Source of the DNA: Rhodanobacteraceae bacterium
GTDB taxonomy: Bacteria > Pseudomonadota > Gammaproteobacteria > Xanthomonadales > SZUA-5
Assembly: GCA_031422315.1 (NCBI GenBank)
Contig: JANOQN010000072.1
Location: 9,048 to 73,047 of the forward strand
Length of the DNA: 64,000 nucleotides
Direction of reading: 5' to 3'
Positions 1 to 21,549 of this stretch are shown one piece after another; the first letter of the stretch is position 1; each line of letters opens with the position of its first letter. The position numbers and the translations under genes were made by a program. The notes below the pieces were generated by a model. That model was given only the letters and a program-made list of their open reading frames with translations. It was not told the DNA's origin and did no database searches.

Positions 1-2
1 GA

Positions 3-1793
3 GATGAACTTGAGGCAACAAAATTAGGTGGTTTTGCAGGGCTCTCAGCATCACAATCTAAGACCGCAAGTCGGCTTGTTTCATCAATCGCAGACCAGTA
101 TGCAAAAGCCTTGTATGGCCCATCCTATGCTTTGCCCAGTTCGTTTGCGGCTTTAGCGTCTCAGGTTGGGACCTCTTTTGCTGCAATTGCTGGTAACTCT
201 CTCGGGCTTGTTAAAAACAATAAGCTAAGTGGCATTGAGTCGTTGGTTGGCCTGATCTCGTCAAGAGCCGGGTTTGTCTCGTCCACGGATGCTATCGAAC
301 AAATACTTCGGGGTAGAGAAGATTGGCTAGCCTTAACCACTGGGATTGAGAATCTTGCACATCAATTTGAATCCAAGTCGAAAGAACTAGAAACAACAAC
401 GCAATCTCTCGTAAAAACTGTCAAGTCGAACCAATCATCAGCCGCGTTTTTGACGTTTCTATATTTTGTGTTGAACGCATTGTTAGGCGACGATTGGATT
501 GCTCGGATATCAGATTCAATTTCGGCTGCTCCAAATCACCCGAAACAAATAACCGTCGAAATTGAATCTAAATGCACCACCGAGCTCTGCATAGTCGCTG
601 GCACAAAACCGCGCCGAATCTTCGGCGAACCACGTAAAAGCGCGACGGTTGTAACTCGCATTTCGGCAGGCACTTTTGTCCGACCACTACACCAGTCAGG
701 CGAATGGCAGCTTATTGAGTTTTTAACCGAAAGCGGGAAAAGACTTAACGGTTGGATCGAAACTGAAGCCTTAGAAGACTTTCGGGCTCAACTAAGCAGC
801 GAGATCGTTTCCGTTTTGACCTCACAAAACAAATCGATTTCCAAAGAAGTAAAAAAGCCGGAAACCTTTGCAGTCCCTAAAATTATTAAGAACGAAGGTC
901 AGCCAGCTACAAAGCGTTTCCTAGAGTTCTTCGCAGCCAGTATTCGAAATAAAAACACACGCCTTGCCTACGCCAAGGCTTGCAATAGCTTCCTTAATTC
1001 AATGGAAAATTCAGGCCTAGCACTTCACATGATCGAACCTCTCCATATCGCGGTGCACGTTGAAAAGCTCACTCAGGAACGCTCGCCAGCAACGGTAAAG
1101 CAACACGTCGCAGCGATTCGCCAGATGTTTGATTACCTCGTCACCGGTCAAATCATCCCAAGCAATCCTGCTTCTTCAGTCAAACCGCCTAAGCATGTCT
1201 CAGACGGTGGGAAAACGCCCATTTTGCAATCAGAGGAGCTTCGCCAGCTGTTCGCAAGCTTGAACCCCGATGTATTGATCGATGTGCGCGATCGCGCAAT
1301 ATTGGCGGTGATGACGTTTTCTTTTGCGCGCGTTGGCGCAGTGGTCAAGCTTCGGGTTCGAGACTATTACCGCCAAGGCGCGCAAGCCTGGTTCTTGCTT
1401 CGCGAAAAAGGCGGGCGCGACAATAAAGTTCCAGTGCATCACGAGGCCGCAAATTACGTGGAACACTACATTGAACTAGCGGGTCTAGCAGACCAGCGGG
1501 AAATGCCACTCTTTCGTAGCTTTAAGGGGCGCACCGGCACGCTCACCGTTAAACCGATGCTACGCGGAAATGTTTTCGACATGATCAGACGGCGCGCCGC
1601 TGCGGTCGGTTTGCCTGTTGAAATTGGTTGCCATAGCTTTCGAGGATCTGGCATTACCAATTATTTAAGCAACGGTGGAACGTTGGAGGTAGCGGCGCGA
1701 ATTGCTGGCCATCGATCAACCACCACAACGCAGCTTTACGACCGGCGAAACGAACAGGTGAGTCAGGCGGAAATAGAGCGGATTCGATTTTGA
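3..1793 (+). CDS. Tyrosine recombinase with long N-terminal extension (hydrophobic helix plus SH3b-like domain); 5' end runs off the window
   Basis: Frame open from base 3. C-terminal ~310 aa has RDRAIL...FARVGA, CHSFR, AGH, QLYD (R-HxxR-H-Y). Segment RRIFGEPRKSATVVTRISAG...WQLIEF...GWIETEAL resembles SH3b. Confidence 0.85.
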   Translation, partial: DELEATKLGGFAGLSASQSKTASRLVSSIADQYAKALYGPSYALPSSFAALASQVGTSFAAIAGNSLGLVKNNKLSGIESLVGLISSRAGFVSSTDAIEQILRGREDWLALTTGIENLAHQFESKSKELETTTQSLVKTVKSNQSSAAFLTFLYFVLNALLGDDWIARISDSISAAPNHPKQITVEIESKCTTELCIVAGTKPRRIFGEPRKSATVVTRISAGTFVRPLHQSGEWQLIEFLTESGKRLNGWIETEALEDFRAQLSSEIVSVLTSQNKSISKEVKKPETFAVPKIIKNEGQPATKRFLEFFAASIRNKNTRLAYAKACNSFLNSMENSGLALHMIEPLHIAVHVEKLTQERSPATVKQHVAAIRQMFDYLVTGQIIPSNPASSVKPPKHVSDGGKTPILQSEELRQLFASLNPDVLIDVRDRAILAVMTFSFARVGAVVKLRVRDYYRQGAQAWFLLREKGGRDNKVPVHHEAANYVEHYIELAGLADQREMPLFRSFKGRTGTLTVKPMLRGNVFDMIRRRAAAVGLPVEIGCHSFRGSGITNYLSNGGTLEVAARIAGHRSTTTTQLYDRRNEQVSQAEIERIRF

Positions 1794-1887
1794 CTCTGAA
1801 GTAACCGAATTAATTTTTCTTCAAAATATTATGAACTGGTTCACAAAAATAGGCGCAGTGTTTGTCATGTCAACCACGACCTGGAGA

Positions 1888-2097
1888 ATGAAAATGCTCA
1901 TAGATAAAGCGATTTTGTCGGTTTTGATACTCGCGATTCCGGTGTGTTCAGAGGCAGGGTGGTTAAAAAAGCGTTGGAGAGAAATAGAACATGCCGCCAC
2001 TGACGCTGCGGACGCAGTAGTTACGGTAGCACATGACAGTCATTGTCGTTCGCCCAGCCATGCAGGCACGCCAGTACCTTTTCTCGATTCTCTATAG
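1888..2097 (+). pseudogene. Probable 5' fragment of a secreted protein
   Basis: GGAG then ATGAAAATG; signal-peptide-like start (ILSVLILAIPVCSEA) then GWLKKRW; runs head-on into the minus-strand ORF. Confidence 0.45.
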
Positions 2098-2608
2098 TTT
2101 CAAAGGCTGGCAGCGCGACAGCAAATCCAGCTTCTGTTTGCACAGCTTTTATAAAATCAGTTCTGCCTTTGTCCGTCGCTAAAATTCGAGCCTTCTCCAA
2201 ACCTGCAACACGAGCAAAACCTACGAGTGACGTTTGTACTCGTTTACGCCGAAGTTTCTCTCGTTTCGGCGTAAAACTAACGGTCTCTCTGCCATCGATG
2301 TCACCGTAAATTGTCAATTTAAAACCGTTTTGTTTGCTTTTTTGAAACACCAGGTTGCCAATCACATTGACAACGTCGCCCAGCTCGATAGTGCAAGCCG
2401 AGGGCAAACAAGCAGTCAAGGTTTGGGTTGCGCCCTCTAGTGACCCAATAACTGCGTATAGCTTTTTCGGAAGTATGGCTGGCCAGGGCGTTACCTCTAA
2501 TACTTTGCCTGTCACCCTAATAGTCCCGCGCGGATGTTCAACGGTTAATTGCGATACGAGCAACTCAGGAGAAAACTGAGGAAACGCTTGCGCTTTCTTG
2601 ATACTCAT
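2021..2608 (-). pseudogene. OB-fold protein resembling exonuclease VII large subunit, C-terminally truncated
   Basis: N-terminal OB-fold-like pattern (IRVTGKV...LYAVI...GDVVNVIGNL), then ILATDKGRTDF and DCHVL, ending where XseA has its RGGG motif. Confidence 0.45.
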
Positions 2609-2628
2609 AGACTTCTCAAAACGTTAAT

Positions 2629-3696
2629 CTAATTTAGATTTGGCTCCGTTACAACTTGGCGAATAACAGCCGGTAGCGCTTCAGGCTCATTTGTGTTCAC
2701 AGCAATTGGTGGAAGCCATCGCAAACTGAGCGCTTGTGTGCCCCGTTTTCCAATCCAGAAGGAATGCCAGTGCGCACGCCTAACATGTGGTCGCACTGAA
2801 TTAACATATCCATCTGCCGTTGAATGCTTAATGTTTTGGCTCGCCCATAAATCAAGCGCACTGCCGATTCGTAAGCCAACCTCCCACGTTTTCGCGAGCT
2901 TGGCAGCGATGAGCCGCCGCTGTGATCCAAAGACTGCTGACTTAGGTGCCGGCGGCGTCCAATCGTCAATTTCAGGCTTCTCGGAGCAAAGATACAGAAC
3001 CAAAGATAGCATCCCAGAAACAACTCGTTCAATTGCCCGTTTCTCTTCGATTTTGAAATCAGAATACTTCCGCTGTTTAGCGCCAGATTCCTGCGCTTCG
3101 GCGTCTTCGTTTCGCTCAAAGTGAAGTTGCACCAAGTCTGATACTGGGTGGTTTCCAAGCGGGAGAGAAAAGGCAATTAAGTCACGAAGTGGTTCGAATT
3201 TCTGCGAGTCGAATTCATTTTCATCCTTCGTGTTGCGCCGTAAAATTCCAACGATTTGCAGATCATCCTGCTTACCTAATCGCGACAAATACGCAAAAAA
3301 ACCCTCAATTGGAAAAGGCAATAATTCTGACTCAGGCGTTTCAATGTAAACCGCTTGCCCAGGCATTCTTAAGAAGAGCGAGCTTGGAATTTCACCTTCT
3401 AAAGGTGTCTTTATCAAAGCCTGAAAAATACCAGGATGAAAACGGTAGATTCCCTTAGTGGGCCGCCAGGAAACAAGCGCTCCGAATAACGCTGGATTGA
3501 ATTCTGGCGAAGGATTGTCAATTCCTTGCAGCCTAAGCGAAAGCGCATTTCCCTCAGCATTAGAGAAGATACATCCTTCTCCATGCTTTCTTTCATTTTT
3601 CAAGAAAGATTTTAGTTCATCCGCTAATCGCCACACCGTAGGGTATCGCTGCTGGACAGTGCGCAGAGCATTTAGAGCTGAGTGATTTTCATCCAT
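2629..3696 (-). CDS. AcrVA2/FinQ-family protein (putative anti-CRISPR or fertility-inhibition factor)
   Basis: Motifs WRPTKGIYRF, IPSSLFLRMP..AVYIE, GFFAY, LVLYLCSEKPEI, VGLRIG, RPHVRRAHWHSFWIG, RWLPPIAVN follow the AcrVA2 motif order as I recall it. Confidence 0.8.
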   Translation of the reverse strand: MDENHSALNALRTVQQRYPTVWRLADELKSFLKNERKHGEGCIFSNAEGNALSLRLQGIDNPSPEFNPALFGALVSWRPTKGIYRFHPGIFQALIKTPLEGEIPSSLFLRMPGQAVYIETPESELLPFPIEGFFAYLSRLGKQDDLQIVGILRRNTKDENEFDSQKFEPLRDLIAFSLPLGNHPVSDLVQLHFERNEDAEAQESGAKQRKYSDFKIEEKRAIERVVSGMLSLVLYLCSEKPEIDDWTPPAPKSAVFGSQRRLIAAKLAKTWEVGLRIGSALDLWASQNIKHSTADGYVNSVRPHVRRAHWHSFWIGKRGTQALSLRWLPPIAVNTNEPEALPAVIRQVVTEPNLN

Positions 3697-3912
3697 GGCC
3701 GATTCCTATAAATAGCACAAAGCCAGTATCCGCCTCCAACTGCGCTGGCGCATTGAGATTGTTTGGCCATTAATTGAAAAACACAACCATCTAGTTTAAG
3801 GCAAACACCAGAAACTCCAATATGCGCGATCCAAAAAGTGCGGAAATGCCTACCAAAGCCGCTAAACCTGCGTTGGCATTCAATACGAGGTTTTCGCGAT
3901 GAAGACAGTCGG

Positions 3913-4200
3913 TCATTCGTGAAACCAATAAAACATGTATTGCAAATGACCTATAAACATGACGATGCCCACGAATGCAAAAATAGGCAGTTCAAATTGG
4001 CGCGCAAGCCAAATCATCACGAAGCTGGCTATGCCGAGCCCGATGGCGACACTCAGCGGACTCATCTCGCGAATGTTTTGTGCATCCTCCAATCTCGACA
4101 CGTAGTAGGCGTAGCCAAACTCAGTATCTTCCGCTGCTTTTGCCGACTTTAAACGCTCGATATAGCGTGTTTTTGACTCAAAAAACCGCCGCCTAGCCAT
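3913..4200 (-). CDS. Small two-TM membrane protein
   Basis: 95-aa ORF with two hydrophobic segments; start overlaps the upstream gene. Confidence 0.6.
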   Translation of the reverse strand: MARRRFFESKTRYIERLKSAKAAEDTEFGYAYYVSRLEDAQNIREMSPLSVAIGLGIASFVMIWLARQFELPIFAFVGIVMFIGHLQYMFYWFHE

Positions 4201-4726
4201 CGGAATACTCCTTCTTTAACATCGGCAAAACCTGACCCTCATCCAACTCCTGACGCGCCGTGGGCCTATATCGCCGCCCAAGCTCCTTCGAAAAAAACAC
4301 GTCACGAAAGTGCGTACGTACGCCACCAATATCATCCACCGACAGTCCAAGTTCGCGCTTATACCAGCGCGCAATCTCATAAGTATCACCGCGCGAACTG
4401 CCCTGCCTCAGACGATTTTGCAACACGTCTAACTCATGTCGGCTTGCTTCCGTGAGCGGCTCAAATGCTGCGAGCAGCTCAAATACGCGCTCTGGAGGTG
4501 CGGGCATTTGCTTCATTGAATACATGCCCCACCCCTGAACTGCGATACTTGCCAGAATCGCAGGCACGTAAAGTGGCGTACCCCATAAAAAATATGCGGC
4601 CACTAGCAACGCAATTGAAAGCGCGATTATGACAAGCGGTTTGTACCGTTTAGCGCTCAGCAAATCCGCAATCTCCTGGATGCGTGCCAGATTCTCCGCA
4701 TCAATCCCAGCATCACGCGCACTCAT
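4193..4726 (-). CDS. Hypothetical two-TM membrane protein
   Basis: 177-aa ORF, ATGA-coupled to the upstream gene, two hydrophobic helices. Confidence 0.7.
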   Translation of the reverse strand: MSARDAGIDAENLARIQEIADLLSAKRYKPLVIIALSIALLVAAYFLWGTPLYVPAILASIAVQGWGMYSMKQMPAPPERVFELLAAFEPLTEASRHELDVLQNRLRQGSSRGDTYEIARWYKRELGLSVDDIGGVRTHFRDVFFSKELGRRYRPTARQELDEGQVLPMLKKEYSDG

Positions 4727-5232
4727 CGAAGTGAATCCACAATCGCGTTGAATTGGCTGATGTAAGTCGCTGCAATTTGTCGCCCACTTTTGCTTTCCAC
4801 GTACGCATTCAAAGCGCTTGCCGTAAGCCCAACAGCGATGTTTTCGTCGGTCACCACGCCATCCCTATCAAAGTCAAATAAGCTACCCACGTCGTAGTTA
4901 TCAACGTTCAAAGCATCGGTCGTCGTAATGGTGGCTTGTTTCCCAGTGGTATCTCTGAGCACCAAGTTGTTGGAATCACCCGCACCCAAAACAAAGCGCG
5001 CGGCATAACCAGGCCGAATTTCAGTAAAGCATCCAGAGGTCATGATTATGACTGCAAGTAATCGGTCAACATATTCGTAGTCCATTTGCTCGGCATCAAT
5101 TTCGCGGATGAATCCACGCGGCTCTACCGCGATGGTGGCGATTGGCGTTTCGCACTGAGTAAGCTTGGCAGGGTCAGCCGCCTGCGCTGTAAGGCATGCA
5201 AACGAGACGGCGCAAATAAAAAACAATTTCAT
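4723..5232 (-). CDS. Secreted CsgG-like protein (short paralog of 7259-8290)
   Basis: Signal peptide (AQA). LTQCETPIATIAV, LLAVIIMTSGCF and GRQIAATYISQFN parallel LERCDAPLGTLAV, LLRLLIQQSGCF and GKVIAGAFMDAFN of the CsgG-like gene. Confidence 0.7.
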   Translation of the reverse strand: MKLFFICAVSFACLTAQAADPAKLTQCETPIATIAVEPRGFIREIDAEQMDYEYVDRLLAVIIMTSGCFTEIRPGYAARFVLGAGDSNNLVLRDTTGKQATITTTDALNVDNYDVGSLFDFDRDGVVTDENIAVGLTASALNAYVESKSGRQIAATYISQFNAIVDSLR

Positions 5233-5465
5233 TGTGGATCCTCGGTAGATTTATTAATCGGCTCGCAAAACAACGTTTCGTCGTCAAACGCTGGTAACCA
5301 TTTCAATCCGTGACATAAGGCGCAGTGATAGATACCGGGTAAATCAGCATCCACGCAATCAACATCGACGCAGCGTCTGTATCCATGCTCAAAAGTGGTA
5401 GCGGCAAACGACTCCTCAATCCGTGCCAAGTTATCCGCATCGGCCACTGCACCACGCCCGCTCAA
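5229..5465 (-). CDS. Small Cys-rich (putative Zn-binding) protein
   Basis: 78 aa, CVDVDC...HCALCHG; 4-bp overlaps with both neighbours. Confidence 0.6.
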
Positions 5466-5938
5466 AACGGTATCTCATCATCAAAGTCATCGGTAGGCGG
5501 CACCTCACTGCGCGCCGGTGCCGCACGCGCAGCCGGCCGTGAACCAGGCGCGCCGGGCGCTGGACGCGCGCGCGGCTCAGCACCGGTGTTGGCATCTTGG
5601 CCGGCGCCACCCAAAAGCTGAATTTCATCCGCCAGAATATCCGTGGTGTAGCGCTCAATGCCTTCTTTATCCGTGTATTTATCGGTGCGCAGCTTGCCTT
5701 CGATATAGACAGAACGCCCTTTACGCAGATATTCGCTTGCGATTTCAGCCAGCCGCCCGAACAGCTTGACCCGATGCCATTCGGTGCGCTCTTGCATTTC
5801 GCCGGTGGCTTTATCTTTCCAGCTTTCGTTGGTCGCTAGTTTTAGCGTGGTAATCGGCGCGCCGTTCGCGCCATACCGGGTTTCAGGATCGGAACCGCAG
5901 TTGCCGATTAAAATGACTTTGTTAACGCCGCGTGCCAT
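5462..5938 (-). CDS. ssb: Single-stranded DNA-binding protein
   Basis: [13 protein letters not shown]...TEWHRV...DFDDEIPF. Confidence 0.97.
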
Positions 5939-5978
5939 AGGGGTTCCTTTGAGTTAATTGATTGGTGAAAAACAATTT

Positions 5979-6374
5979 TTATAACAGTGCTTCGCATATT
6001 GCGCGCGGATGTGTTGGATCCAGTGCGTAGAGCGCTACTCGTTGATCCACAATTCGCGTGTTGAAATCCGCCATCAAGCTCGCTGCGTCAGTGAAGTAAT
6101 CCGCCCGCTTCGCCAAAGAAGCCAGTTTCATTTCAAGACCTTCAATCGCTTCTACAGTCCTTTCTACTTCCGCCAGGCGGCTGTCTTTTCGCGCATCTAA
6201 GGTGCCTTCATTGGCGAGGTGCTGCCGTATTGCAAAACGCGCTTCTGCTTCCAACGACCTACTATTTGCTTCCGCCGAACGATTCAGCGCCGAGTGCATG
6301 CCACTTTCCAATCTAACCGTCATCCGCTCTTTTGGGTTTTCTGCAACTGTGTTTTCGTTGATGCCACGTGTCAT
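5979..6374 (-). CDS. Arc/ribbon-helix-helix DNA-binding protein with coiled-coil tail
   Basis: RMTVRLESGMHSALNRSAEANSRSLEAEARFAI is Arc-like. Confidence 0.75.
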   Translation of the reverse strand: MTRGINENTVAENPKERMTVRLESGMHSALNRSAEANSRSLEAEARFAIRQHLANEGTLDARKDSRLAEVERTVEAIEGLEMKLASLAKRADYFTDAASLMADFNTRIVDQRVALYALDPTHPRAICEALL

Positions 6375-6406
6375 GGGTGTCTCCGTTAAAAAATGTGTGC
6401 AGGTAC

Positions 6407-6991
6407 TTATGGGTTCTCAAATCCAGAACTAAATATCAGCGGCGCGACCGGCCCTTGCACCTGTCCATCACACACCACATCACCGGTTCGACTGCGAAGG
6501 CGCACTGAGTCAAACCCTGGCAAATACTGGATAACGAACGGCATGGGCTCTAAGGCAATCCGCTGATTTGCCGATCCGCTGAGCGTCAAAATCGGCGCCG
6601 GCGGATTGATAGAAAGCGCAGCGCCATTAGCGCGCCTGCAGTTACTCCATGACCCACTGCTGATCTCGATCAAGTTTGGCTGCATAAAGCTTTGCACTAG
6701 CGTGCCGGTGATTTGGTACCAAAAGCTATCCAGCTCCAACAGCATCGGCAGGGTTGATGCCGGCAGTGGATCTCGACTGATCGCGACACCCGTTGCGCCA
6801 CGCCCTAGACAGCAGTTATCCAGGTTGCCAATGGTCAAAATTAAGTTGCCGCGTGACAGCAAATGAGGCGGTATCACCGACACGCTGGTCGGTTGCCCTG
6901 CTCCATTGCTGATGGTCAGCGTTTGCGCCTGGCTAACCGAGCCCAAACCAAGCGCAACCAGGAACGCCATTCTCAAGCAGAGTTTATTCAT
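6407..6991 (-). CDS. Secreted protein with C-terminal IFxxGFE motif
   Basis: Start re-assigned to MNKLCLRMAFLVALG (signal peptide, SQA); ends LIFSSGFENP. Confidence 0.75.
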   Translation of the reverse strand: MNKLCLRMAFLVALGLGSVSQAQTLTISNGAGQPTSVSVIPPHLLSRGNLILTIGNLDNCCLGRGATGVAISRDPLPASTLPMLLELDSFWYQITGTLVQSFMQPNLIEISSGSWSNCRRANGAALSINPPAPILTLSGSANQRIALEPMPFVIQYLPGFDSVRLRSRTGDVVCDGQVQGPVAPLIFSSGFENP

Positions 6992-7259
6992 CGTCAGGCG
7001 CACGCAATAGATAAACAAAAACAATATTGAGCGATATTCTCGTTGCATTTTGCGACGTATTATCAGCCCAATCCCAAGCACGTTTCCTTAAGTCTTGTTC
7101 AATTTTCTCAAACTCTTTTTCTGATAACGGCCAACCGCAATTTTCTAAAATGACGGTGCTTGTCCTTAGTCCACTCTCCAAAGGTGAGTCTGAGGGTCCG
7201 TGTACCCCGTAGTGATAGGTAACCTTGAGGTGCGTCGTTCCTGTCATATCTGCGCTCAT
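6984..7259 (-). CDS. Hypothetical protein
   Basis: 91-aa ORF coupled to both neighbours. Confidence 0.6.
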   Translation of the reverse strand: MSADMTGTTHLKVTYHYGVHGPSDSPLESGLRTSTVILENCGWPLSEKEFEKIEQDLRKRAWDWADNTSQNATRISLNIVFVYLLRAPDDE

Positions 7260-8290
7260 TATTTCAACGCCGACAACGTGCCCGCATCCAGAACTCCGGA
7301 CGCCGGCAACCCGCGAATCGTTTGAAACTGCTTCAACGCCGCCACTGTCTTTGGACCAGGTGCACCGGTAATCGCATCCGAATAAAGCCCTAATTGCGCG
7401 AGCCGAATCTGCGCCTCGCGCCAGGTCATCGGCGCAGCTGCTGCAGCCGGTTGTGACGCAGCCACCGGCGCGGCCGTACGCGCACCATCCACCGCGAGCG
7501 CGCCCCCAGTTCCCAAACCATTCGGGCCAGTACGCTGCGCACTGTAACCGCGCGCTGCCACGGTCATTTGATTAAACGCATCCATAAACGCGCCGGCAAT
7601 CACTTTGCCTTGAGGCGTGTTCTGCCAAGCACCCATGCCGACTGCCGCGCCGCCGCCGACACCTAAACCGCCAAACGAAAAGTCCTTTTTAGACGCCACA
7701 CCTTCACTAAAGGCCACTTGCACACCGCTGCGCCCATCCACCAATATCAACGTGGTAGCGGCCTCCACTTTTCGCATACCGCCCGCCACCAGCCCGGCAT
7801 AAGGATTGAGCATGCCCACGATCGCGCCGACTGTGCCGCCACCGGTGGCTTGTGCAAATTGGATCGATGGCGTCATGGTGTAATCCGCAGCCACCATCTG
7901 CCCCGCACCCATATTTGAGCCCTGCCGAAGATCACCATTGCGCGCCATATCGCGTTCGACCTGCATTTGCTCCATCGCGCGGCCGCGATCGACAATCACA
8001 AAACACCCGGACTGCTGGATCAATAGCCGCAGCAAGGGAGTGGTAGCCGGCAATTCGTATTGCGTGGTCAACAGCGTGTACCAATCCTGCGTCGTGTCTT
8101 CAACCACGGCCAAAGTGCCGAGCGGCGCATCACAGCGCTCCAGCAGCGCACTGGCACCGACGGCATTACCACCTGCCGCAGATCCAGAAACCGGGCCGCG
8201 CGCAGAAGGATCACCGACTTGGACGCCGGTGGCGCAGCCGCCTAACAGTAGAGCAGTAAGGCAAAGGGTGAGGGGTTTGAAAGAAGTCAT
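7259..8290 (-). CDS. CsgG-family lipoprotein with C-terminal peptidoglycan-binding domain
   Basis: Lipobox LLGGC; SGCFVIVDRG...AADY; C-terminal AQIRLAQLGLY...GPKTVAALKQFQ...GLPASGVLD. Confidence 0.85.
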   Translation of the reverse strand: MTSFKPLTLCLTALLLGGCATGVQVGDPSARGPVSGSAAGGNAVGASALLERCDAPLGTLAVVEDTTQDWYTLLTTQYELPATTPLLRLLIQQSGCFVIVDRGRAMEQMQVERDMARNGDLRQGSNMGAGQMVAADYTMTPSIQFAQATGGGTVGAIVGMLNPYAGLVAGGMRKVEAATTLILVDGRSGVQVAFSEGVASKKDFSFGGLGVGGGAAVGMGAWQNTPQGKVIAGAFMDAFNQMTVAARGYSAQRTGPNGLGTGGALAVDGARTAAPVAASQPAAAAAPMTWREAQIRLAQLGLYSDAITGAPGPKTVAALKQFQTIRGLPASGVLDAGTLSALK

Positions 8291-8320
8291 TTTAGGTTCC
8301 TGGGGGTTAAATGGCGTCAA

Positions 8321-8364
8321 GTAGTCCAATTGACTACAAGCATTGGGTTAATTAGACTAGCGTC
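8321..8364 (+). promoter_or_regulatory. sigma70 promoter of mqsRA with palindromic operator; probably leaderless mRNA
   Basis: TTGACT (8330-8335), 17-bp spacer, TAGACT (8353-8358); ATG at 8365; palindrome GTAGTC-N5-GACTAC (8321-8337) overlaps the -35. Confidence 0.65.
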
Positions 8365-10486: not shown

Positions 10487-12199
10487 TCACACGAGCATCT
10501 TGGCAACCATTTTAGGTGCCTCCTGAGCTACCGCAACGCCCGCCTTTGCATTTTGCCGCGCGGTCTGTTCATTTCGCTTGCCCATAGCCCCAGTCAATGA
10601 CCCCAAAGCACTCGCCCCTTGCCACCCCGCAAACGTCAAAATAAACGTCCAAATCGACGGCGCTAAAACGGCCATGGCATTGGTGACCCGATCCATCAAA
10701 ATGCGCTTGCTACCAAAGCCTTCAACAAAGCCCTCCAAAGCCCCTGAGTCCGGGTACATGGATTCGAGCAAATTGGTGTCGAGCCACATGGTGATGGTCC
10801 AGCACATTTGCCAGCAAATGACGCTCAACACCAAGACAGCGTAAGTCGCGCAAATCTTAAAATTAAACCCCGAAAACAGCGCCACAAACGGCGCCAGCAT
10901 GTACAGCCACAGCAAGACAATCGACTGCGTAATCTGCTGCAAATTATTATTCGCCAAGGTCTCCGCGCTGGCATAGGGCTGCGATACGACATTACCCAAC
11001 CAGCCTACAAACTCAGTGGCCGTCTTGCCAATGCTCTTACCTACAGCACCGCGGACGCCACTGTCAGACTTTGTTTTACCGGTGTAGTAGCTCAAATCAT
11101 CGGAAAACAACGCCACCGCATTGCTGCGATTGATCACAGCCCTCGTAATCATATCTTTCATACCGTAGGTGCCTGAATCGCTTTCATCACCCAAGCGCGG
11201 AATGCCGTTGTCGGCCATGATTGCGTTGAACGAGCTGACATAAGTGGATTGGTTAACCGTTACATCGTCCCTAATTTTGCGCCACCACTGGTTGCAATAC
11301 GGCCGCGCAGGCGGCTGCACACCGGCCACCATGGAGGTGCCATCACGATTGGCGTCATAGCTAAAATTGCGCGTGCCTTCGGTCGCTTGTAGTGAGCTGC
11401 CGCAAATTGTCGGCGTGGTGCAGGGCTTATACAATCCCGGCGTGTTCATCAAAATGATCGAGCCCATGTAGCTAATATCTTTGAGGCCCCACTCGGCTTC
11501 TAGCGCTAACAATTCCTGGCGCTTACCCTTCTGATCGTTCGACCACGTTTTCCACTTGTTGACCGCCGGGATGTAGCACTGGCTATTAAACTTGACGACA
11601 TCAGCGCGCAGATTGCCGTCCGTAAGCTTCAACTGACTCATTCCTTGATCCAGCAAGCGCAGCGATAGTCGATCCGGCAAGATGACGGTAGTCGCGCGGT
11701 TCAATCCGTGGCCAATCATCATGGCTAAGCGAACGCCCATCGGCGTTTTAATCGTCAGCGTGCCGCCCGCCGGTGATTCGGCAATATTAAAACCCCGATC
11801 CCCATGCGTTTGCAGTCCCAGAGCTTCCATAAACGTCACCATGCCATCTGGCTGTGCGACGGTAGAAAACTGCGCCGGCGGATCGTAGTTTAACGTCCGC
11901 AAATCCAGCGAACCCATTGGCCATACAAACATCAGCATGACGATATAAGTGCCCGCTAATTTCCACCACAGCGTACGCACTACGTATTGCCCGCCTTCGA
12001 GCCCGCCGATCTTTGCCGCCTCAATGCCGGTCGCAATCACCACCACTGCAAACACCAGCTTGAACAGCCCAAGTGACCACAATAATCCAAAAAACTGCTC
12101 ACCCGCCGCTAAGCCATACAACGTGGCGTAAAACTCCAGATAGGAGCCGACCGCTTCGGCAACAAACACGAAGCTCTGTAAATCCGCAACCAGGCTCAT
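10487..12199 (-). CDS. traG: TraG N-terminal domain mating-pair stabilisation protein
   Basis: SYLEFYATLYG start, F.SQCY.PA, P.C.QWW, C-terminal TM helices; end of the MPF-G operon. Confidence 0.88.
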   Translation of the reverse strand: MSLVADLQSFVFVAEAVGSYLEFYATLYGLAAGEQFFGLLWSLGLFKLVFAVVVIATGIEAAKIGGLEGGQYVVRTLWWKLAGTYIVMLMFVWPMGSLDLRTLNYDPPAQFSTVAQPDGMVTFMEALGLQTHGDRGFNIAESPAGGTLTIKTPMGVRLAMMIGHGLNRATTVILPDRLSLRLLDQGMSQLKLTDGNLRADVVKFNSQCYIPAVNKWKTWSNDQKGKRQELLALEAEWGLKDISYMGSIILMNTPGLYKPCTTPTICGSSLQATEGTRNFSYDANRDGTSMVAGVQPPARPYCNQWWRKIRDDVTVNQSTYVSSFNAIMADNGIPRLGDESDSGTYGMKDMITRAVINRSNAVALFSDDLSYYTGKTKSDSGVRGAVGKSIGKTATEFVGWLGNVVSQPYASAETLANNNLQQITQSIVLLWLYMLAPFVALFSGFNFKICATYAVLVLSVICWQMCWTITMWLDTNLLESMYPDSGALEGFVEGFGSKRILMDRVTNAMAVLAPSIWTFILTFAGWQGASALGSLTGAMGKRNEQTARQNAKAGVAVAQEAPKMVAKMLV

Positions 12200-13554
12200 G
12201 GCAATTTAGGCGCGGTGCCTAACTCAGGCTCGACTTCATCATATTCCTGCCGATCCTCGACCGGTGCCGAGCGCATAAAGTTCGCTCGATCCAACACCTG
12301 CATGGCCGTTTCTGCCACCAGCTCCTTACGCACGCGGCTTTCGTAAAGCAGATCATCCACATATGCGCGGAGCAGCTTCAGTACGCGATCATTATTATTG
12401 CCGGCGCTTTCATTATTCATCACCACCGGCTGGCTCGCACCTAAGCGAAAGATATTCATGGCCATCAAGGCGCGGCCAATCGTGTTTTGCAGCGCCATCT
12501 CATTACTGAGCCGCACTTCAATGAGCGAACGCTCCGCCAGCGCCAGCTCGCGAATGGAGTTCACTAATTGATCCGTCAATTGCGTGCCATCGGGCGATAT
12601 CGCCAGCTTTTCCGCCAGCGTCATATTGCGGTTTGACCGAATCGCCGCCTGAAACAGCGGAAAGATGCGGTTAGCCTCCCGCTCAACTTCCGGATTCAAG
12701 CCAAACCCTGGCTTAGTCGACTTTTCCCCCGCTTCGTTCGTCGTGACATACACCTCACCGGTCACGCGCTGAATCCAACCGGCTGCCGTATCGACATCGC
12801 CAAACCATGTGGTGATGAAATTCTCAAAAACTTTAGGCGTATCAGTAGACTTAGCCGCCACCCGCGCCGCGCCATAGCCACGCGCCATGCGATAGCCCGC
12901 TTTCATGACATCTCCGGTCAGCGCAATCACTGGCTGATTATCGCCACCCGCATTGCCAGGACGGCCATTGGGCACCCACGATATTCCGTTTCGTCCGGCA
13001 TTGGCTTCTACCGTTTTTTGCGCAGCCACGACGTTATTGCGACTCGCGCTCGCCTGCACTTTCCAATCGGTCAAGCGCGCTGCCTGCTTAAAGTTATCCC
13101 ACACTGCAGCAGGCCCGCCGCCGGAAGCAATAATCGTTTCTTCCATGGCTTTACAATCCAACCGCGCCGCATTCGCCATCGCCTGCACGCGCAACAACCC
13201 GTTTTGCATCATGTCGTACAGCGAGGGATTGGCGCGCTGCAGAATAATCGCAGGCAACGATGCTATGGCCGACTGCGCATTGGACACCATCAAGTTAACG
13301 TACTCATCCGCTGCCGTGCTGACATCGCGCAGCAGCGCGTTAACCGAGTTGCTCACACTGAACTTGCCACACGAATAGTTCCACGACAATTCACCGGCAG
13401 CCGTGAGCGCCACCGCATTATTCCCAGTCCACGCCGGCCGGCTTACCGGCTCAGCCCCACCCAACTCATAAAACCAAGCGGATTGCGCCTGCACGTGGCT
13501 ACTGCAAACACCAGCCAACACAGCGGCCAAAAGACAAAGACGGATGGATTTCAT
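12196..13554 (-). CDS. ICE protein, TIGR03755 (PFL_4711) family
   Basis: YELGGAEPVS, SCGKF, IASLPAIILQRANPSLYDMMQNG. Confidence 0.9.
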   Translation of the reverse strand: MKSIRLCLLAAVLAGVCSSHVQAQSAWFYELGGAEPVSRPAWTGNNAVALTAAGELSWNYSCGKFSVSNSVNALLRDVSTAADEYVNLMVSNAQSAIASLPAIILQRANPSLYDMMQNGLLRVQAMANAARLDCKAMEETIIASGGGPAAVWDNFKQAARLTDWKVQASASRNNVVAAQKTVEANAGRNGISWVPNGRPGNAGGDNQPVIALTGDVMKAGYRMARGYGAARVAAKSTDTPKVFENFITTWFGDVDTAAGWIQRVTGEVYVTTNEAGEKSTKPGFGLNPEVEREANRIFPLFQAAIRSNRNMTLAEKLAISPDGTQLTDQLVNSIRELALAERSLIEVRLSNEMALQNTIGRALMAMNIFRLGASQPVVMNNESAGNNNDRVLKLLRAYVDDLLYESRVRKELVAETAMQVLDRANFMRSAPVEDRQEYDEVEPELGTAPKLP

Positions 13555-14657
13555 TTGAAAGTTCCCAGTTGTTTTGAATTAGCAGCTTCCGCTGCATTTG
13601 GCACGAGAAAGCGCAGACACACCGCAGGCGTCGCCACTTCACGAATAAAGACAGCCCCACGATTCGGCAGGCAGCATTGATAAGGCCGCCACAGCTGCCA
13701 GGCGTAGGTGTCTTTCAGCGTATTGATCTGAAAGCTTGGCAATAAGCCCGATTCTCCGAACGGCCCACAGCCACGGCTGGGTACCGGATAAAGGTTTTGC
13801 CACAAATCGGTGCGCTCATTGGCCGCCGCACCGCGCGCCCTGATGTAGACATGCGGATTGAATGAACTGGTGGTGATGTCCGCCGCACGCTGCGCCATCA
13901 CGGCGGCGGCTTTGCGCGGCTCCGACTGCACCGACAAAAACCCGTGCCGAGGAAACACATTGCCCCAGACGCTGGTGAAGTAGTCATTGCGCACTTCGCG
14001 CAAATAGGGGATGTAAGTTGCCGGATACAACAGCTCAGCCTCGGGATTGCGCCAGCTCAGCACGTCGGTACCCGATAAAAAATAGGGAAACAAGCTGGTG
14101 GTATTGATCGGACACACACCCGGCACCGCCACCCCAAAACCGCCCAACGAGCCGCCTAAAGCCGATGCGAGCGGATGCCCATACGCCTCAGCCTCATAAA
14201 AGCGCACCTGCATGCGCCGGGTATCCTGCTGAGTTTTGGTGGTCTGATTTTGTTCCTGATTATTCGCTGGTGTATGCCGGCCGCCCTGCACTGTCGTGCC
14301 CGATAGCAAGCCATAGCTTTGCGCCGCAACGCCAGCCCCCAAGCTGATCGGTGATACCTCCAGCCACGGTTGATCGCCATGATGCTCAAACACCGTCACC
14401 ACAAGATCTGGGAAGTTATGTTTGACCTTCAGCGTTGTTTCAATGCGCGGGCCCAATGGCGTAATTCTCAGCCAAAAACAAATCCCAATCACACAGTGGT
14501 TAAAGCAAGGCAGCATGAAAGGATTGATCGTGGCCGCTGTGATCGTCGCTGAATTCATCTGCGCATTGACCGAACCACTCGCCAAAACACCCAGCAAGAG
14601 CAACCCTCGCAGCGCGCCTCCGGACGCGCGCGAAAACGAACGGTGCACGCGGCTCAT
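13551..14657 (-). CDS. ICE protein, TIGR03756 (TraU-like) family
   Basis: GICFWL, KVKHNFPDLVV, PYFLS..D...WR, WGNVFPRHG, YAWQLWRPYQCC. Confidence 0.92.
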   Translation of the reverse strand: MSRVHRSFSRASGGALRGLLLLGVLASGSVNAQMNSATITAATINPFMLPCFNHCVIGICFWLRITPLGPRIETTLKVKHNFPDLVVTVFEHHGDQPWLEVSPISLGAGVAAQSYGLLSGTTVQGGRHTPANNQEQNQTTKTQQDTRRMQVRFYEAEAYGHPLASALGGSLGGFGVAVPGVCPINTTSLFPYFLSGTDVLSWRNPEAELLYPATYIPYLREVRNDYFTSVWGNVFPRHGFLSVQSEPRKAAAVMAQRAADITTSSFNPHVYIRARGAAANERTDLWQNLYPVPSRGCGPFGESGLLPSFQINTLKDTYAWQLWRPYQCCLPNRGAVFIREVATPAVCLRFLVPNAAEAANSKQLGTFK

Positions 14658-15139
14658 AGCCCCTTCCTATATGCACCGATGGCAAATTCGACGGACGAAG
14701 CGCCGTAGTACACATGCTTCTCATTGATGACGACTGCAGGCGTGCGACTAATCTTGAAACTGTCTGCACGGGCTTGCCCATTGGCTGCATGCGCATAGTC
14801 CGCAATCTGCGCCTCACTGAGCGCATTGACCCGCTGGGCCACCATCGCCTTTGCCTGCGTTTCATTATTTGGTAAGCCTTGACCCAATCGGTCATTGAGC
14901 TTGGCCATGTCATCTAGATTGTAAATTGCCAACGTGCCGGCCTTTTCCAGACTCATAGCGTAAGAACCCGCTGCGATGGGCGTGCCGTCCTGGGTAAACA
15001 CATCAACACGGAACACCTCGCCTCGCGCTGGAGCAGCAATCGGCGCACCCCCGGCAGCCGCTGCATCCGGTGCCTGCGCGCGCAATGGCAGCAAGCCCAG
15101 CGCCAATACCAACATCAATCCACCCCAAATCATCCTCAT
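14654..15139 (-). CDS. ICE protein, TIGR03757 (DUF1525) family
   Basis: VDVFT, LP.NETQAKA, PAVVINEKHVYYG; operon position. Confidence 0.85.
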   Translation of the reverse strand: MRMIWGGLMLVLALGLLPLRAQAPDAAAAGGAPIAAPARGEVFRVDVFTQDGTPIAAGSYAMSLEKAGTLAIYNLDDMAKLNDRLGQGLPNNETQAKAMVAQRVNALSEAQIADYAHAANGQARADSFKISRTPAVVINEKHVYYGASSVEFAIGAYRKGL

Positions 15140-17925
15140 TTGCGATCACTCCACGATTTTGCCGGTGCCGCGTTGGCGTGGTTGGCGCGCTTCTCACCAA
15201 TTCGGCGCGCCACTTCATAGACAGATGCCAGTTCGTCGCAGCCTGTCGCAATTTGAATGTCTTTTCGCGCTGCACGCTCGTGCTGCTCGGTTTGCGCCAA
15301 GGCCAATGCAAGCGGTGGAAATACCGCCCTAAACAGCGCCGTGCAACTCTCATGCAACACCACGCCTTCGGAAAACAATCCCGGCGATTTAGTTGCGCTT
15401 TCCACCATGGCACCCTGTTCATTGGTCAAATTCTTCAGCGCCCGCAGCTTGGTCACGTCATCCTTGGGCATCGACAGACACAGCATCCATTCGAGCTGTG
15501 TCAATAACGAGCTCATCGAGCCCTTAAAATCATCGATCGATTGAGTGGCCTGCCAATACCACGCGCCGGCCGAGCGCCAGGTCTTGATAATCTTGGCGAT
15601 GTACGCGCCCATCATCGGGTTTGACGCCAAGGAATGCACTTCATCGACCACCACCACGGTGTTGCGGTGACCGTTCTGCTGGCGGGTGATATGCAATTGG
15701 ATAGCCTGTAATAACGACATAAACGCCACTGCCAATTGATCGCTGTAGCCCTCGCCGCCCAGCTGCGCAAATTCGACCAGCGTGACATCGACCGTTGGCC
15801 AAGGTTTACCCGGCCGATTAAAGATGCGGCCCGCAGTGCTTTGCGTGAAAAACATGAGCGCACTGCTCATCTCATGCAGGCGCGAGCGCGACTTATCATC
15901 AATCGCGTCGTTTTCGCCCGCCAACGCTAAAGCCGCAGCAACGTCTTCGGTCAACACCACACCCGTGGAGCCCTCAGACGTACGCGTTTTAACCGTCTGC
16001 GCAGCCGAAAAGATGGCTTCGGCAATCGCCGTGCGATCCGCTCGACGCATGCGTTTGGCCTCTTCGGGCTCACCGCCGGTAATCATTTGAATCGCGAGTG
16101 AAATCATTTCGCCCAATAAGTCGCGTCCGCCTTCGACGTCGGCGTCATCCATTTCCGTGCGCGCCACGGTCGGATCGAGCAGCTGCATGGCTTGATCGAA
16201 CGGATTGAGCGCCACGTCGCTATCGTTGGTAAGCCGCACGTGGTTAACACTGAGCCCTTGAGCCTTGAAATACGTCACAAGAAGCCCGAACGAGGGCGCA
16301 GGCCATTTCGGATCGATGATCCATAAATAAGGCTTATGCACGGTCATAAGCTGCAACATGGCGTACGTCAACGCCGCAGATTTGCCCGAGCCGGTCGGCC
16401 CAAACACCGTCATATGCGCGTTTCGGATTCGATTTTTGAGTGGATCAAATGTGAGCGGCTCTGCTCCACGATTAAAATACGCCAGCATCGGCGTACCCGT
16501 GCCGCGCGACCGCCCGGAGGTGGGCAGCAGTTTGGCGATTTCACTGTCCTCTTGCAGCGTTGATCTACGCGGGCCGGCCATATCGCGCTCAAACGAAAAG
16601 CCGAACGGCAAGTTGTCGATGAACGCCGTGCCGCGAAATAAATCGTAGCGCTCTTCATATACCGGCAAATTGTGCGTGCTGAGCAACGCACCACAGCGAT
16701 TGGCTTTGGCGAAGAGCTCGTCTTTCGTTTTGCCACTTAGATAGAACACCACGCTCACGCGGTATAACTTTTCGCCCCTAGACATTTTGTTGCGTGCATC
16801 AAAAATATCCTGCCTGGTATTTTCGACGTGCGCCCCGTCCCCAACGCTGACTTTGCCAAGCGAAGCCAAGTGCCTTTCAATTTGAAACTGCGGCTCACCA
16901 ATGACGGTAATAGCAATCCGCGTGCCCTCAGGCAGCTTGTCCATCAACGTGCCGGCGCTTTTGTCTTCCCCGGTCAACAATCCGAAGGCGAGCGAGCCCT
17001 CCCACATGCGCACCGTCAATGTCGTATACAGCGTTTCGTGGCACTTCCAAATGCCATCGGAGACATGCTCAGGCGCGCTGCGCAGCGTGTATTCCGCTAA
17101 ATCCCACTCAAGCGGGACTTTGCGATGAATTTCGTCCGGAAACGGCGAGAGGCGCATGAGCGCATACGGATCACCGTCGGTAATGCTGGGGCTCGGATTG
17201 AGGAACGGCTGCATCCATTCGACCAAATCCCGGCCCCGACACGCCCGCAATTTAACGCCGTTTTCCTCAAACCCGGAGATAAACACGCCGCGCGCTTCTT
17301 TGCCGCGCAACAGGCTGTCTTTAAGCTTTTCGGTTCTGAGCGCGTTGCGATACAGCGTCACAAACACCCGACGCTCTTTTCCACGCCAGGGTTTGCCATC
17401 GATGGCAAATGCGCCGCCGGGTTTGGCAATATCTTGTAGATGCGCATCGACCGCGCCGAGCCAATGCTTTGCCAGTGGCGTGCCTTTGAACGCATCGGGT
17501 ATTGCGTCGTTAAGCTGCGTCCAGAAGGGATAGAGTGACGCTTCGTCTTGCACAAAAAACTGGCTAATCCACGGGGATTGCGTATCTTCCATCAGGGCAT
17601 TGCGGACCGCTTTGGTAAACGCACCGTGCATTTCAACCAGCGTTTCCGGATCCCGACCTTCCGTGGCCAGCGGCGTCAATTCCCACAAATAGCCAATGCT
17701 GCGGCCGTCGGACAGAATAAATGCACCGGTATCGGCATCCCAATCCGAAAAGCGCAAAAAGTCCGCAAAGCTCGGTGGCAGCTCGCGAAATTTCTTTTCA
17801 GCAGCTTTGGTCAATGGTTTGCCAAGCGCAGCTGATGCGGGTTTTAACGCACGATCCGGGTCAACCGGCGGCGGGTCAAACGTTTTAACGGTCGGCAAGA
17901 ACAGCGATTTTAAGGTCGCGATCAT
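15136..17925 (-). CDS. virB4: Conjugative transfer ATPase (VirB4/TraC-like, TIGR03744)
   Basis: Walker A GPTGSGKS, Walker B VVVDEVH, FNRGAEPLTFDPL, W.WQATQ. Confidence 0.93.
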   Translation of the reverse strand: MIATLKSLFLPTVKTFDPPPVDPDRALKPASAALGKPLTKAAEKKFRELPPSFADFLRFSDWDADTGAFILSDGRSIGYLWELTPLATEGRDPETLVEMHGAFTKAVRNALMEDTQSPWISQFFVQDEASLYPFWTQLNDAIPDAFKGTPLAKHWLGAVDAHLQDIAKPGGAFAIDGKPWRGKERRVFVTLYRNALRTEKLKDSLLRGKEARGVFISGFEENGVKLRACRGRDLVEWMQPFLNPSPSITDGDPYALMRLSPFPDEIHRKVPLEWDLAEYTLRSAPEHVSDGIWKCHETLYTTLTVRMWEGSLAFGLLTGEDKSAGTLMDKLPEGTRIAITVIGEPQFQIERHLASLGKVSVGDGAHVENTRQDIFDARNKMSRGEKLYRVSVVFYLSGKTKDELFAKANRCGALLSTHNLPVYEERYDLFRGTAFIDNLPFGFSFERDMAGPRRSTLQEDSEIAKLLPTSGRSRGTGTPMLAYFNRGAEPLTFDPLKNRIRNAHMTVFGPTGSGKSAALTYAMLQLMTVHKPYLWIIDPKWPAPSFGLLVTYFKAQGLSVNHVRLTNDSDVALNPFDQAMQLLDPTVARTEMDDADVEGGRDLLGEMISLAIQMITGGEPEEAKRMRRADRTAIAEAIFSAAQTVKTRTSEGSTGVVLTEDVAAALALAGENDAIDDKSRSRLHEMSSALMFFTQSTAGRIFNRPGKPWPTVDVTLVEFAQLGGEGYSDQLAVAFMSLLQAIQLHITRQQNGHRNTVVVVDEVHSLASNPMMGAYIAKIIKTWRSAGAWYWQATQSIDDFKGSMSSLLTQLEWMLCLSMPKDDVTKLRALKNLTNEQGAMVESATKSPGLFSEGVVLHESCTALFRAVFPPLALALAQTEQHERAARKDIQIATGCDELASVYEVARRIGEKRANHANAAPAKSWSDRK

Positions 17926-18335
17926 GGGTCAATCGTGTCGGTGGCAGTGGCGGTCTCACCCGGCAAGGCGTAGGGCGCGCTATCCCACATTGGGAACGTG
18001 GTGATGTAGCCTGGCACCGGCAATTGCCCGGATAAGTGCGGAAACACATACATGGCCATTGTCGGGTTCGGCACTTTGGCAAAGCGCGTGGTCAGCTCGG
18101 TGGCCTCTGAACGCGCAAAGCCCGTTAAATCGGATCCCGCGTCGCTCAGGTCACGCCCGTGATACGGCTTTTCAATGCCAGCGCGCGCCGGCGCTTTCGA
18201 ATCCGCTTCCGGATCCACCGTTTCAACTCCGGCATAAATATCCGCCATGCTGCTGGTCGCAACCGGAAGTTTGGATTTAGCGCAGCCACCCAGGCTGGCA
18301 ACCAACAAGACGACTAAAATATCAAGAATGCGCAT
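17922..18335 (-). CDS. Conjugative transfer lipoprotein, TIGR03751 family
   Basis: Lipobox LGGC; PNPTMAMYVFPHL...PVPGYITTFP...YALPGE. Confidence 0.9.
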   Translation of the reverse strand: MRILDILVVLLVASLGGCAKSKLPVATSSMADIYAGVETVDPEADSKAPARAGIEKPYHGRDLSDAGSDLTGFARSEATELTTRFAKVPNPTMAMYVFPHLSGQLPVPGYITTFPMWDSAPYALPGETATATDTIDP

Positions 18336-18338
18336 AGG

Positions 18339-19820: not shown

Positions 19821-20578
19821 AGCGAATCCCCATACGACTGCCCTGACACCAGATACAGCATGGTGCTGCTACTGACCGAGCCCGCAGGCTGTAAAAAGCC
19901 ATGCTGAAAGGTCGCGGTAAGCCAGCGCCCGCGCAGTAAACGCGGATCTAGTTCCCGGCCGTCTGGCGTAGTGTTTTTCATCTCGACCGCCGTGACGTAC
20001 AAATTGTGATAGCGCCACGCCGCACGCGGCAGCGCAATCACCGCCCCACCGCGATACAGCGCCGTGATCTCAATCGGCAGCGCGACACGGCTGGCTTTGA
20101 GGCCACCGCGCAAGCGATCTGGCGCATAAAACTCCCGCGCCGCAAAGCGCGTCAGTTCCATGCGTAAATCGGATTCGCCCACCGTCTCGTCGTTCTGCGC
20201 TGGGCTTTCTTTTGCAACAGCAGCCGCATCGATGAGTTGAAAACTATTTTTCGGTGCACTGGCACGCGCCGTGATGTCAATCAAATAGATTCGGTTGTTG
20301 GACTTGACGCTGCGCAGAGCCATGCGGCCTTCGACGGCCTTATTGGCGGTTATCAATACCACCTTGTTAGTAATTTCCACGCTGACCACGCCTGCAAAAG
20401 CCGCAGGCAGCCCAACTTCCACGTCTTCCGGCATGCGTAGGACGGTTTCATGATCGATCGGTATCGCAATCGACACCGGGATATCGTCATACGGCACGAT
20501 ATCGACGGCGGCAAAGCCATAGCTAGTCCAGATCAGCGCACACAGTGCGCAAGCTAAACTGATGACGTTCAATTTCAT
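19817..20578 (-). CDS. ICE protein TIGR03749 (DUF3438)
   Basis: LTRFAAREFYAPDRL, LDPRLLRG..LTATFQH. Confidence 0.9.
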   Translation of the reverse strand: MKLNVISLACALCALIWTSYGFAAVDIVPYDDIPVSIAIPIDHETVLRMPEDVEVGLPAAFAGVVSVEITNKVVLITANKAVEGRMALRSVKSNNRIYLIDITARASAPKNSFQLIDAAAVAKESPAQNDETVGESDLRMELTRFAAREFYAPDRLRGGLKASRVALPIEITALYRGGAVIALPRAAWRYHNLYVTAVEMKNTTPDGRELDPRLLRGRWLTATFQHGFLQPAGSVSSSTMLYLVSGQSYGDSL

Positions 20579-21213: not shown

Positions 21214-21547
21214 CGTGGCCCCCTTTAGATCGCTTGTAGTAGTAGGGGCCGAGCGCCGGCTTCCACCGCGCCCGATTAAACATCACCATGATTTCTTGCA
21301 TTAAGAAATTAGCGGGCGAATCCTTTTTGCGCCGCTGCACCCACATGCCCAGCAGCAATGCCAGCACGAGCCCTCCGCATACACCGACCAACATGCCGAC
21401 CAGCAGCCCGTAGCTGCCGGATAAAATGCCGAGAACAACGCCGATTGGCAGCATGATCCCGTAGGCACCACTGACCACGATGATGATTTCGCGCTGGGTT
21501 AGGCCCATCAGTGCAATCGGCTCAATGTTTAGGTTGCGGGTGCTCAT
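21200..21547 (-). CDS. Conjugative transfer protein TIGR03750
   Basis: Start re-assigned to MSTRNLNIEPIALMGLT; two TM helices; operon position. Confidence 0.8.
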   Translation of the reverse strand: MSTRNLNIEPIALMGLTQREIIIVVSGAYGIMLPIGVVLGILSGSYGLLVGMLVGVCGGLVLALLLGMWVQRRKKDSPANFLMQEIMVMFNRARWKPALGPYYYKRSKGGHDGLR

Positions 21548-21549
21548 GA

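Follow-up and report, generated by a model that had tools for sequence, protein, structure and literature searches.

An AcrVA2/FinQ-family gene carried as exchangeable cargo of an MPF-G ICE in a host in which no Cas12a was found

AcrVA2, encoded beside acrVA1 in a Moraxella bovoculi prophage, is described in the consulted part of a preprint by Marino et al. (10.1101/2022.11.29.518452) as binding the N-terminal peptide of Cas12a and causing a translation-dependent loss of its mRNA. The same source reports that the substitutions H286A, R288A and H291A diminish activity and that W79A and D89A lead to a moderate loss, while E98 and D129 contact the 620-636 peptide of Cas12a in the crystal but are dispensable in vivo. 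The C-terminal part of the protein is stated to associate with ribosomes, and the cutting to be performed by a host enzyme, in the accessible text of an editorial (PMC13728456) on a 2026 paper. In the literature covered, an activity is described for just one further family member, FinQ, a fertility inhibitor of IncI1 conjugative plasmids, which lowers the mRNA of F transfer genes, an effect first read as transcription termination (PMC8744291, in the part consulted). AcrVA2 and FinQ agree in their C-termini and diverge in their N-termini, and about 1,800 AcrVA2 orthologs have been counted on diverse mobile elements, typically without Cas12a, for which other targets are predicted (10.1101/2022.11.29.518452, same part). 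The family and its occurrence in Cas12a-less hosts are already published, and the ortholog list of the preprint may include members of the subclade described below. A search of titles and abstract beginnings, with most subscription papers outside it, found no report of a PFGI-1-class ICE that carries a gene of this type, and neither AcrVA2 nor FinQ is mentioned in the main text, as far as consulted, of a study that surveyed hotspots in Pseudomonas islands (PMC12629846).

The main question regarding this family is what its homologs silence in hosts without Cas12a. The value of the locus presented here lies in a distinct, well-sampled subclade with its own N-terminal signature, and in a pair of ICEs, one with the gene and one without it, in a single genome; since that genome also holds two type I CRISPR-Cas systems, both intact, there are only a few candidate targets, and these can be named. 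The window, as the whole stretch of DNA that was analysed is called here, comprises 64,000 nucleotides from a Rhodanobacteraceae bacterium, and the gene under study has the following features:

2629..3696, minus strand: intact acrVA2/finQ-family gene, 355 aa, GC 0.47, GC3 0.42
2749..2793, minus strand: motif RPHVRRAHWHSFWIG, residues 302-316, which holds H304, R306 and H309 (H286, R288 and H291 of AcrVA2)
3704..3707, minus strand: Shine-Dalgarno-like AGGA, 7 nt before the ATG of the gene

The ORF starts with ATG and reads from 3696 to 2629; a promoter scan of the 216-bp gap upstream revealed no sigma-70-like promoter, with site counts near shuffle level. The host genome carries one copy of the gene, and the H[IV]RRxHW pattern occurs only once in its 5.08 Mb, all six frames considered. 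Read-derived contigs also cover the locus in whole or in part: window positions 1-3857 are matched without a difference by a contig from a public run, which is possibly the source of this DNA, contigs of a second study span most of the gene with 9 differences in 265 nt and 9 in 617, and a contig of a third study covers the 5' end of the gene and its junction to the backbone (3435-3857) with 18 differences. In a comparison of 350 aligned codons with the Vogesella copy (locus L007), 97, 60 and 226 differences fall at first, second and third positions, and another codon is used at 145 of 230 conserved residues. The predominance of third-position changes indicates that the gene is under purifying selection.

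An earlier note on this DNA, made from its letters and translated reading frames, had assigned the gene to the AcrVA2/FinQ family on an ordered set of motifs that included RPHVRRAHWHSFWIG. The motif is present as noted, at residues 302-316 of the 355-residue protein, and the family assignment is borne out by a match to AcrVA2 in both sequence (E 2e-13) and fold (Z 20.5); in the HMM and structure searches that the note had called for, similarity to AcrVA2 was found by sequence and by structure, and similarity to FinQ by sequence and profile. In a phmmer search of the PDB, AcrVA2 (7CI1/7CI2) was the only significant match, the next having an E value of 0.19. An AlphaFold2 model generated without templates (mean pLDDT 83.5) retrieved with Foldseek three AcrVA2 chains as the sole matches at E<=0.001 (E 1e-13 to 1e-11, TM 0.55-0.65), and the VIA fold search over 48,161 representative chains placed 7CI1 at Z 20.5 (rmsd 3.6 A over 269 aligned residues, 18% identity), with a runner-up at Z 3.5. 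Because AlphaFold2 may have seen the AcrVA2 structures, the sequence evidence is the independent part of this argument. The gene thus encodes an AcrVA2/FinQ-family protein.

The homolog search retained 744 proteins out of 4,833 candidates. The family model PF26125.1 is precomputed on the 355-residue protein and on all 120 homologs among the matches listed; phrog_6160 matches it with an E value of 3e-41 over residues 73-338, and two close homologs carry the NCBI name 'AcrVA2 family anti-CRISPR protein'. Scans with NCBIfam, PADLOC and Pfam models yielded no model matching the protein. In a plasmid collection, 700 of 72,556 records match it, including one at 60-80% identity and annotated finQ genes at 25% identity over residues 45-345 (E 5e-18 to 6e-17). 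A profile built from 41 query-side homologs scored FinQ at 190 bits and a Moraxella phage protein at 124 bits; BLASTP gave E 1.5e-24 over 336 columns for FinQ versus E 3.7e-16 over 283 columns for the Moraxella phage protein. The latter, from phage Mcat5, is annotated as hypothetical, and 'AcrVA2-like' is a label given to it in this analysis. A C-terminal LPxVI tail is common to the 355-residue protein and FinQ only. Identity to AcrVA2 (18% in the structural alignment) and to FinQ (25%) is too low for the target to be transferred from either.

The residues that matter for AcrVA2 activity are kept. In an alignment with the PDB sequence, whose chain numbering is that of the preprint plus one (checked on W79, D89, E98 and D129), W79, H286, R288 and H291 correspond to W77, H304, R306 and H309, and these four are invariant in 48/48 subclade members and 71/71 other homologs among the matches listed (119 rows, the partial sequence P0049 being left out). 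In AcrVA2, the mutant equivalent to H304A traps the target. The column of D89 holds H87 in the protein, H in 38 of the 48 subclade rows and D in 66 of the 71 others; it holds S in FinQ, and D89 is therefore not required for family membership. E98 and D129 align to K96 and P129. In comparison with AcrVA2, the overall fold is the same and the length similar, with D89->H, E98->K and D129->P, whereas hardly any alignment is possible in the first 70 residues and in the middle part; AcrVA2 stands beside acrVA1 in a prophage, while the gene studied here is a lone ICE gene. FinQ has the same W and HxRxxH residues and is likewise encoded by a lone gene of a conjugative element, but it is found on an MPF-I plasmid and not an MPF-G ICE, and its N-terminus is different.

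Within the PF26125/phrog_6160 family, the protein belongs to a distinct subclade, with 47 relatives among the matches listed at 42-66% identity over 97-100% of the length; below it, full-length matches fall to at most 37% identity, again among the matches listed. The subclade stem measured 1.33 in a quick tree of 102 rows (28 from the subclade; SH-aLRT 100) and 1.24 changes per column in a careful tree of 25 rows, with support of 93/97, just below the starring threshold. Neither tree places the subclade with FinQ, although FinQ and the Mcat5 protein both sit on long branches and their position is unsure. The N-terminal signature W-x-x-W of the other homologs is replaced by H38-x-x-G41 in the subclade (H38 in 43/48, versus W in 63/71 others; G41 in 48/48, versus W in 62/71), to which E48 is added in 47/48. 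The Mcat5 protein is 6% identical over residues 1-70, 7% over 141-225 and 33% over 301-348; for FinQ the values are 14% over residues 1-70 and 44% over 301-348. Such C-terminal agreement combined with N-terminal divergence finds its natural reading in a conserved effector end and an altered recognition end, and the subclade's own N-terminal signature, together with the His at the AcrVA2 D89 position, suggests that its target is another one.

The carrier had also been read correctly as an MPF-G ICE, since it shows NCBIfam models of the PFGI-1 class and a MobH relaxase. Its main features in the window are:

3913..8329, minus strand: co-directional ICE backbone run upstream of the gene, with a peptidoglycan-binding lipoprotein, a ribbon-helix-helix protein (5979-6374), ssb (5462-5938) and small ORFs
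10487..27824, minus strand: MPF-G (PFGI-1 class) transfer cluster, with TraG_N, TraU, TraC/VirB4, the TraD coupling protein and TIGR037xx genes
28104..30326, plus strand: MobH relaxase (NF041494, 245 bits, cut-off 200)
30402..31361, plus strand: tyrosine integrase
32665..32710, plus strand: 46-bp att copy, identical to the 3' end of tRNA-Lys(TTT) (contig C52, 16024-15979); right end of the ICE

TIGR03744, 46, 49, 51, 52, 55 and 56 score over their NCBIfam cut-offs, certain short tra genes falling under theirs. The att copies of this ICE sit on two contigs, C52 and C72 (that of the window), and the parA/parB-like genes beside tRNA-Lys on C52 lie at its far end. The left ends of C52 and C72 overlap by 141 nt; an equal overlap exists with the left end of C66, and the C52-C72 join, from which an ICE of about 57.6 kb would result, is therefore likely without being the only one possible. 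The element shares with PFGI-1-class (MPF-G, MOBH) ICEs its MobH relaxase, its integrase, an att at a tRNA 3' end, the parA/parB-like far end and variable cargo downstream of traG. It also carries MqsR/MqsA with an extra HTH gene (8365-9421, plus strand) and a ParE/ParD-like pair (31804-32555, minus strand). A 44-nt direct repeat (95% identical; 27882-27925 and 27988-28031) lies between the divergent pilL-like gene and the relaxase, and is a candidate oriT or regulator-binding region, while short tandem and dispersed repeats occur in and after a 420-aa replication-initiator-like ORF of the left arm (C52:10888-12617).

The same genome contains a second MPF-G ICE (C52:24375-56609, probably with C83 and C66:1-12539), whose att is at tRNA-Met. 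Its gene order is the same, its Tra proteins are 35-64% identical to those of the window ICE, and the backbone run at 3913..8329 is mostly common to both. Homology between the two elements at the DNA level ends 80 nt upstream of the ATG, at window position 3776; the next 6.7 kb, beyond which it returns, define a variable cargo slot:

1..3775, unstranded: window part of the variable cargo slot (C72:6090-12822; 6.7 kb, GC 0.48), absent from the sister ICE
1..1793, plus strand: slot gene, 3' part, whose 765-aa product carries a tyrosine recombinase domain at its C-terminus
2021..2608, minus strand: 195-aa ORF, 21 nt downstream of the acrVA2/finQ-family gene, not a conserved partner

The acrVA2/finQ-family gene is the first gene of this slot. 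The GC content of the slot is 0.48 versus 0.56 in the tra cluster, the GC3 of the gene is 0.42 versus about 0.65, and the sister ICE does not have the gene, its own 4.1-kb slot holding addiction-module and BrnA antitoxins, a DUF5615 protein and another tyrosine recombinase. A variable slot, low GC and GC3, and absence from the sister ICE identify the gene as exchangeable ICE cargo, not backbone. As regards the remaining slot genes, the 765-aa protein (L001:8543-10840, plus strand) has a long low-complexity N-terminal part with a weak SH3_3 match, and a 591-aa ORF (L001:6639-8414, minus strand) has no Pfam, NCBIfam, PADLOC or PHROG match. In the backbone, ssb, the peptidoglycan-binding lipoprotein and a GYF_2 gene are 89-94% identical in DNA between the two ICEs, versus 65-74% for the tra genes where alignable, a contrast that suggests recent exchange between the two elements.

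As the earlier note had claimed, no aca-like HTH gene adjoins the gene: none of the three flanking ORFs (95, 195 and 88 aa) has a match to an HTH family or to any other Pfam or PHROG family (PHROGs scan only for the 88-aa ORF), and the nearest DNA-binding gene is the ribbon-helix-helix gene of the backbone, 2.3 kb upstream. An acr-aca operon was not found, there being neither an adjacent HTH aca gene nor an acr cluster at the locus. The 195-aa ORF aligns at 26% identity with a 295-aa paralog (C70:433-1320, minus strand), but only over the first two thirds of the latter; it lacks the last 100 residues and is thus probably truncated. Neither has a family match, and by eye we take both to resemble exonuclease VII large-subunit-like proteins.

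Elsewhere, the closest GTDB relative with long flanks (L008, a Pseudomonadales MAG, 65%) belongs to another MPF-G ICE, where it lies 2 kb past TraG_N, is oppositely oriented and has different neighbours; a Sir2-HerA defence pair is located 2.3 kb upstream of it (L008:2001-4949). The L008 protein is identical to that of L007 (Vogesella) at 342 of 351 residues, and the two share a nearly unchanged cassette (L007:2118-3002 and L008:8066-9508) composed of a DUF2807 gene, the acrVA2-like gene, a ParD/ParE-like pair (by eye) and a DUF6904 gene, the last being cut short in L007. This near-identity in Vogesella and a Pseudomonadales MAG points to recent horizontal transfer. The copy of Paraburkholderia (L009) adjoins a Fic gene and an integrase, and a TraC search had no match in the genomes behind L007 and L009; an MPF-G ICE is thus the context in two of the four known subclade contexts (the window and L008). 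Metagenome, viral, order-level and phylum-level searches found no subclade context beyond L007-L009. A survey of 165 family loci, which fall into 127 groups at 70% identity, revealed no conserved partner gene: tyrosine recombinases, the neighbours met most often within 3 kb, occurred in 9 of these groups.

A listing of the CRISPR-Cas types of the host, which the earlier note had proposed, gave types I-F and I-C and no Cas12a, a result that fits its inference of a target different from Cas12a, which it took to be possibly another defence protein or a rival conjugation system. The two Cas1 genes of the host belong to a type I-F operon (C31) and a type I-C operon (C48), in which all 13 scanned genes exceed an NCBIfam cut-off. 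Cas12a was not found in the host with TIGR04330, the same search being positive in the control genome G066, and tblastn of the G066 Cas12a against the host genome gave no match at E<=0.1; with a genome 95.7% complete in 85 contigs, absence of Cas12a from the host is probable, not proven. Nor was Cas12a found in the three other subclade genomes tested, two of which matched Cas1. Cas12a occurs in 1 of 401 genomes of the class (G066) and family genes in 4 of 400, rates so low that their non-overlap is expected by chance and is not counted here. None of the 66 host spacers matches either ICE with fewer than 9 mismatches, which is also the value of the chromosomal control; the arrays end at contig ends, and spacers may therefore be missing. 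An LSKT-like motif is absent from the N-termini of the host Cas proteins, a weak test given that specificity has probably changed, and when 3,699 host ORFs were scanned for [LV][SQ]KT within their first 40 residues, the one match was unrelated. A VirB4 of the PF03135 type was not found in the host, the control being positive. Complex prediction of the 355-residue protein with the first 50 residues of the G066 Cas12a scored 0.09 against a mark of 0.32, which is not evidence either way.

On the model of AcrVA2, the protein would recognise one specific polypeptide by its N-terminal peptide while this is still nascent on the ribosome, and this binding would trigger decay of the corresponding mRNA. 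Ribosome association would occur through the C-terminal HxRxxH part, a host nuclease would be recruited, and the divergent N-terminal and middle parts would choose the target, as AcrVA2 leads one to expect. Since fold and essential residues are kept, the mechanism of AcrVA2 is favoured, and we consider it quite likely to operate here, although FinQ has been described as a transcription terminator and the family may not share one mechanism. The target would most likely not be Cas12a but a gene for transfer or regulation on a mobile element that competes with this ICE, given a lone gene on a conjugative element, as finQ is, no sign of CRISPR pressure and a related ICE in the cell; FinQ, on its IncI1 plasmids, sets the precedent by lowering F transfer-gene mRNA, and in BLASTP the protein is somewhat more alike to FinQ than to the Moraxella phage AcrVA2-like protein. 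The combination of an AcrVA2-type mechanism and a rival-element target is nevertheless proposed tentatively, with chances somewhat short of even, as the subclade is not placed with FinQ in the trees, the position of D89 is occupied by H87, only two of four subclade contexts are on an MPF-G ICE, and the two intact host CRISPR-Cas systems are equally possible targets. The latter consideration leads to a reading in which the same co-translational decay is directed at a host defence protein other than Cas12a, such as a Cas subunit of type I-F or I-C, or a protein acting in restriction or against plasmids, so that the gene would help the ICE to stay in, or to enter, defended hosts. The I-F and I-C operons with their 66 spacers are consistent with it, as are the position of the gene downstream of the ssb-containing run on the same strand and the defence and anti-defence cargo held beside conjugation genes by related Pseudomonas islands (PMC12629846, in the part consulted); however, there is no self-targeting spacer, the best ICE match equalling the chromosomal control, neither an aca nor a second acr adjoins the gene, Cas content varies among subclade hosts, and the LSKT-like motif is missing from the host Cas N-termini. 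We regard this reading as possible but lean against it, and a rival mobile element ranks slightly ahead of a host defence protein, in an ordering that is soft.

That the protein is a true anti-Cas12a, kept for other hosts through which the ICE or the cassette passes, would agree with the wide mobility of a cassette whose Vogesella and Pseudomonadales copies differ at only 9 of 351 residues, and with the NCBI name of close homologs; it is very improbable in view of the lack of a Cas12a match in the host and three further subclade genomes, the rarity of Cas12a in the class, the near-absent identity to the Moraxella AcrVA2-like protein over residues 1-70 and 141-225, and the alignment of the peptide contacts E98 and D129 to K96 and P129. 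The fold could also be shared while the action differs, for instance on transcription or on a gene of the ICE itself, or the gene could be a passenger without a matching local target. A stem branch of 1.24-1.33 changes per column, the loss of W-x-x-W and of D89, and a sister ICE that shows the gene to be dispensable for this type of element speak in this direction, but all residues essential for mRNA decay are invariant, the gene is under purifying selection, and near-identical copies are present in runs of two other studies, and we judge it unlikely. Returning to an AcrVA2-type silencer, a more specific version would see the subclade as retargeted, with a rebuilt N-terminal pocket (H38/G41/F44/E48/H87) that reads a new nascent peptide and with destruction of an mRNA that encodes either a transfer protein of the sister MPF-G ICE or a type I Cas subunit. 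This version is doubtful. If true, co-translational mRNA decay would be a means by which one ICE inhibits the fertility of another, or by which an anti-CRISPR counters a type I system, and the AcrVA2/FinQ family would gain a naturally occurring variant of altered specificity that acts on a new target. A new target, if found, would show how specificity is encoded and widen the use of the family as a peptide-programmable tool for mRNA knock-down. Finally, a search for fusions among longer proteins, weak in that only 7,995 candidates were scored, gave one match, P0154, whose 721 aa look like a tandem duplication of an AcrVA2-type unit with a degenerate first copy.
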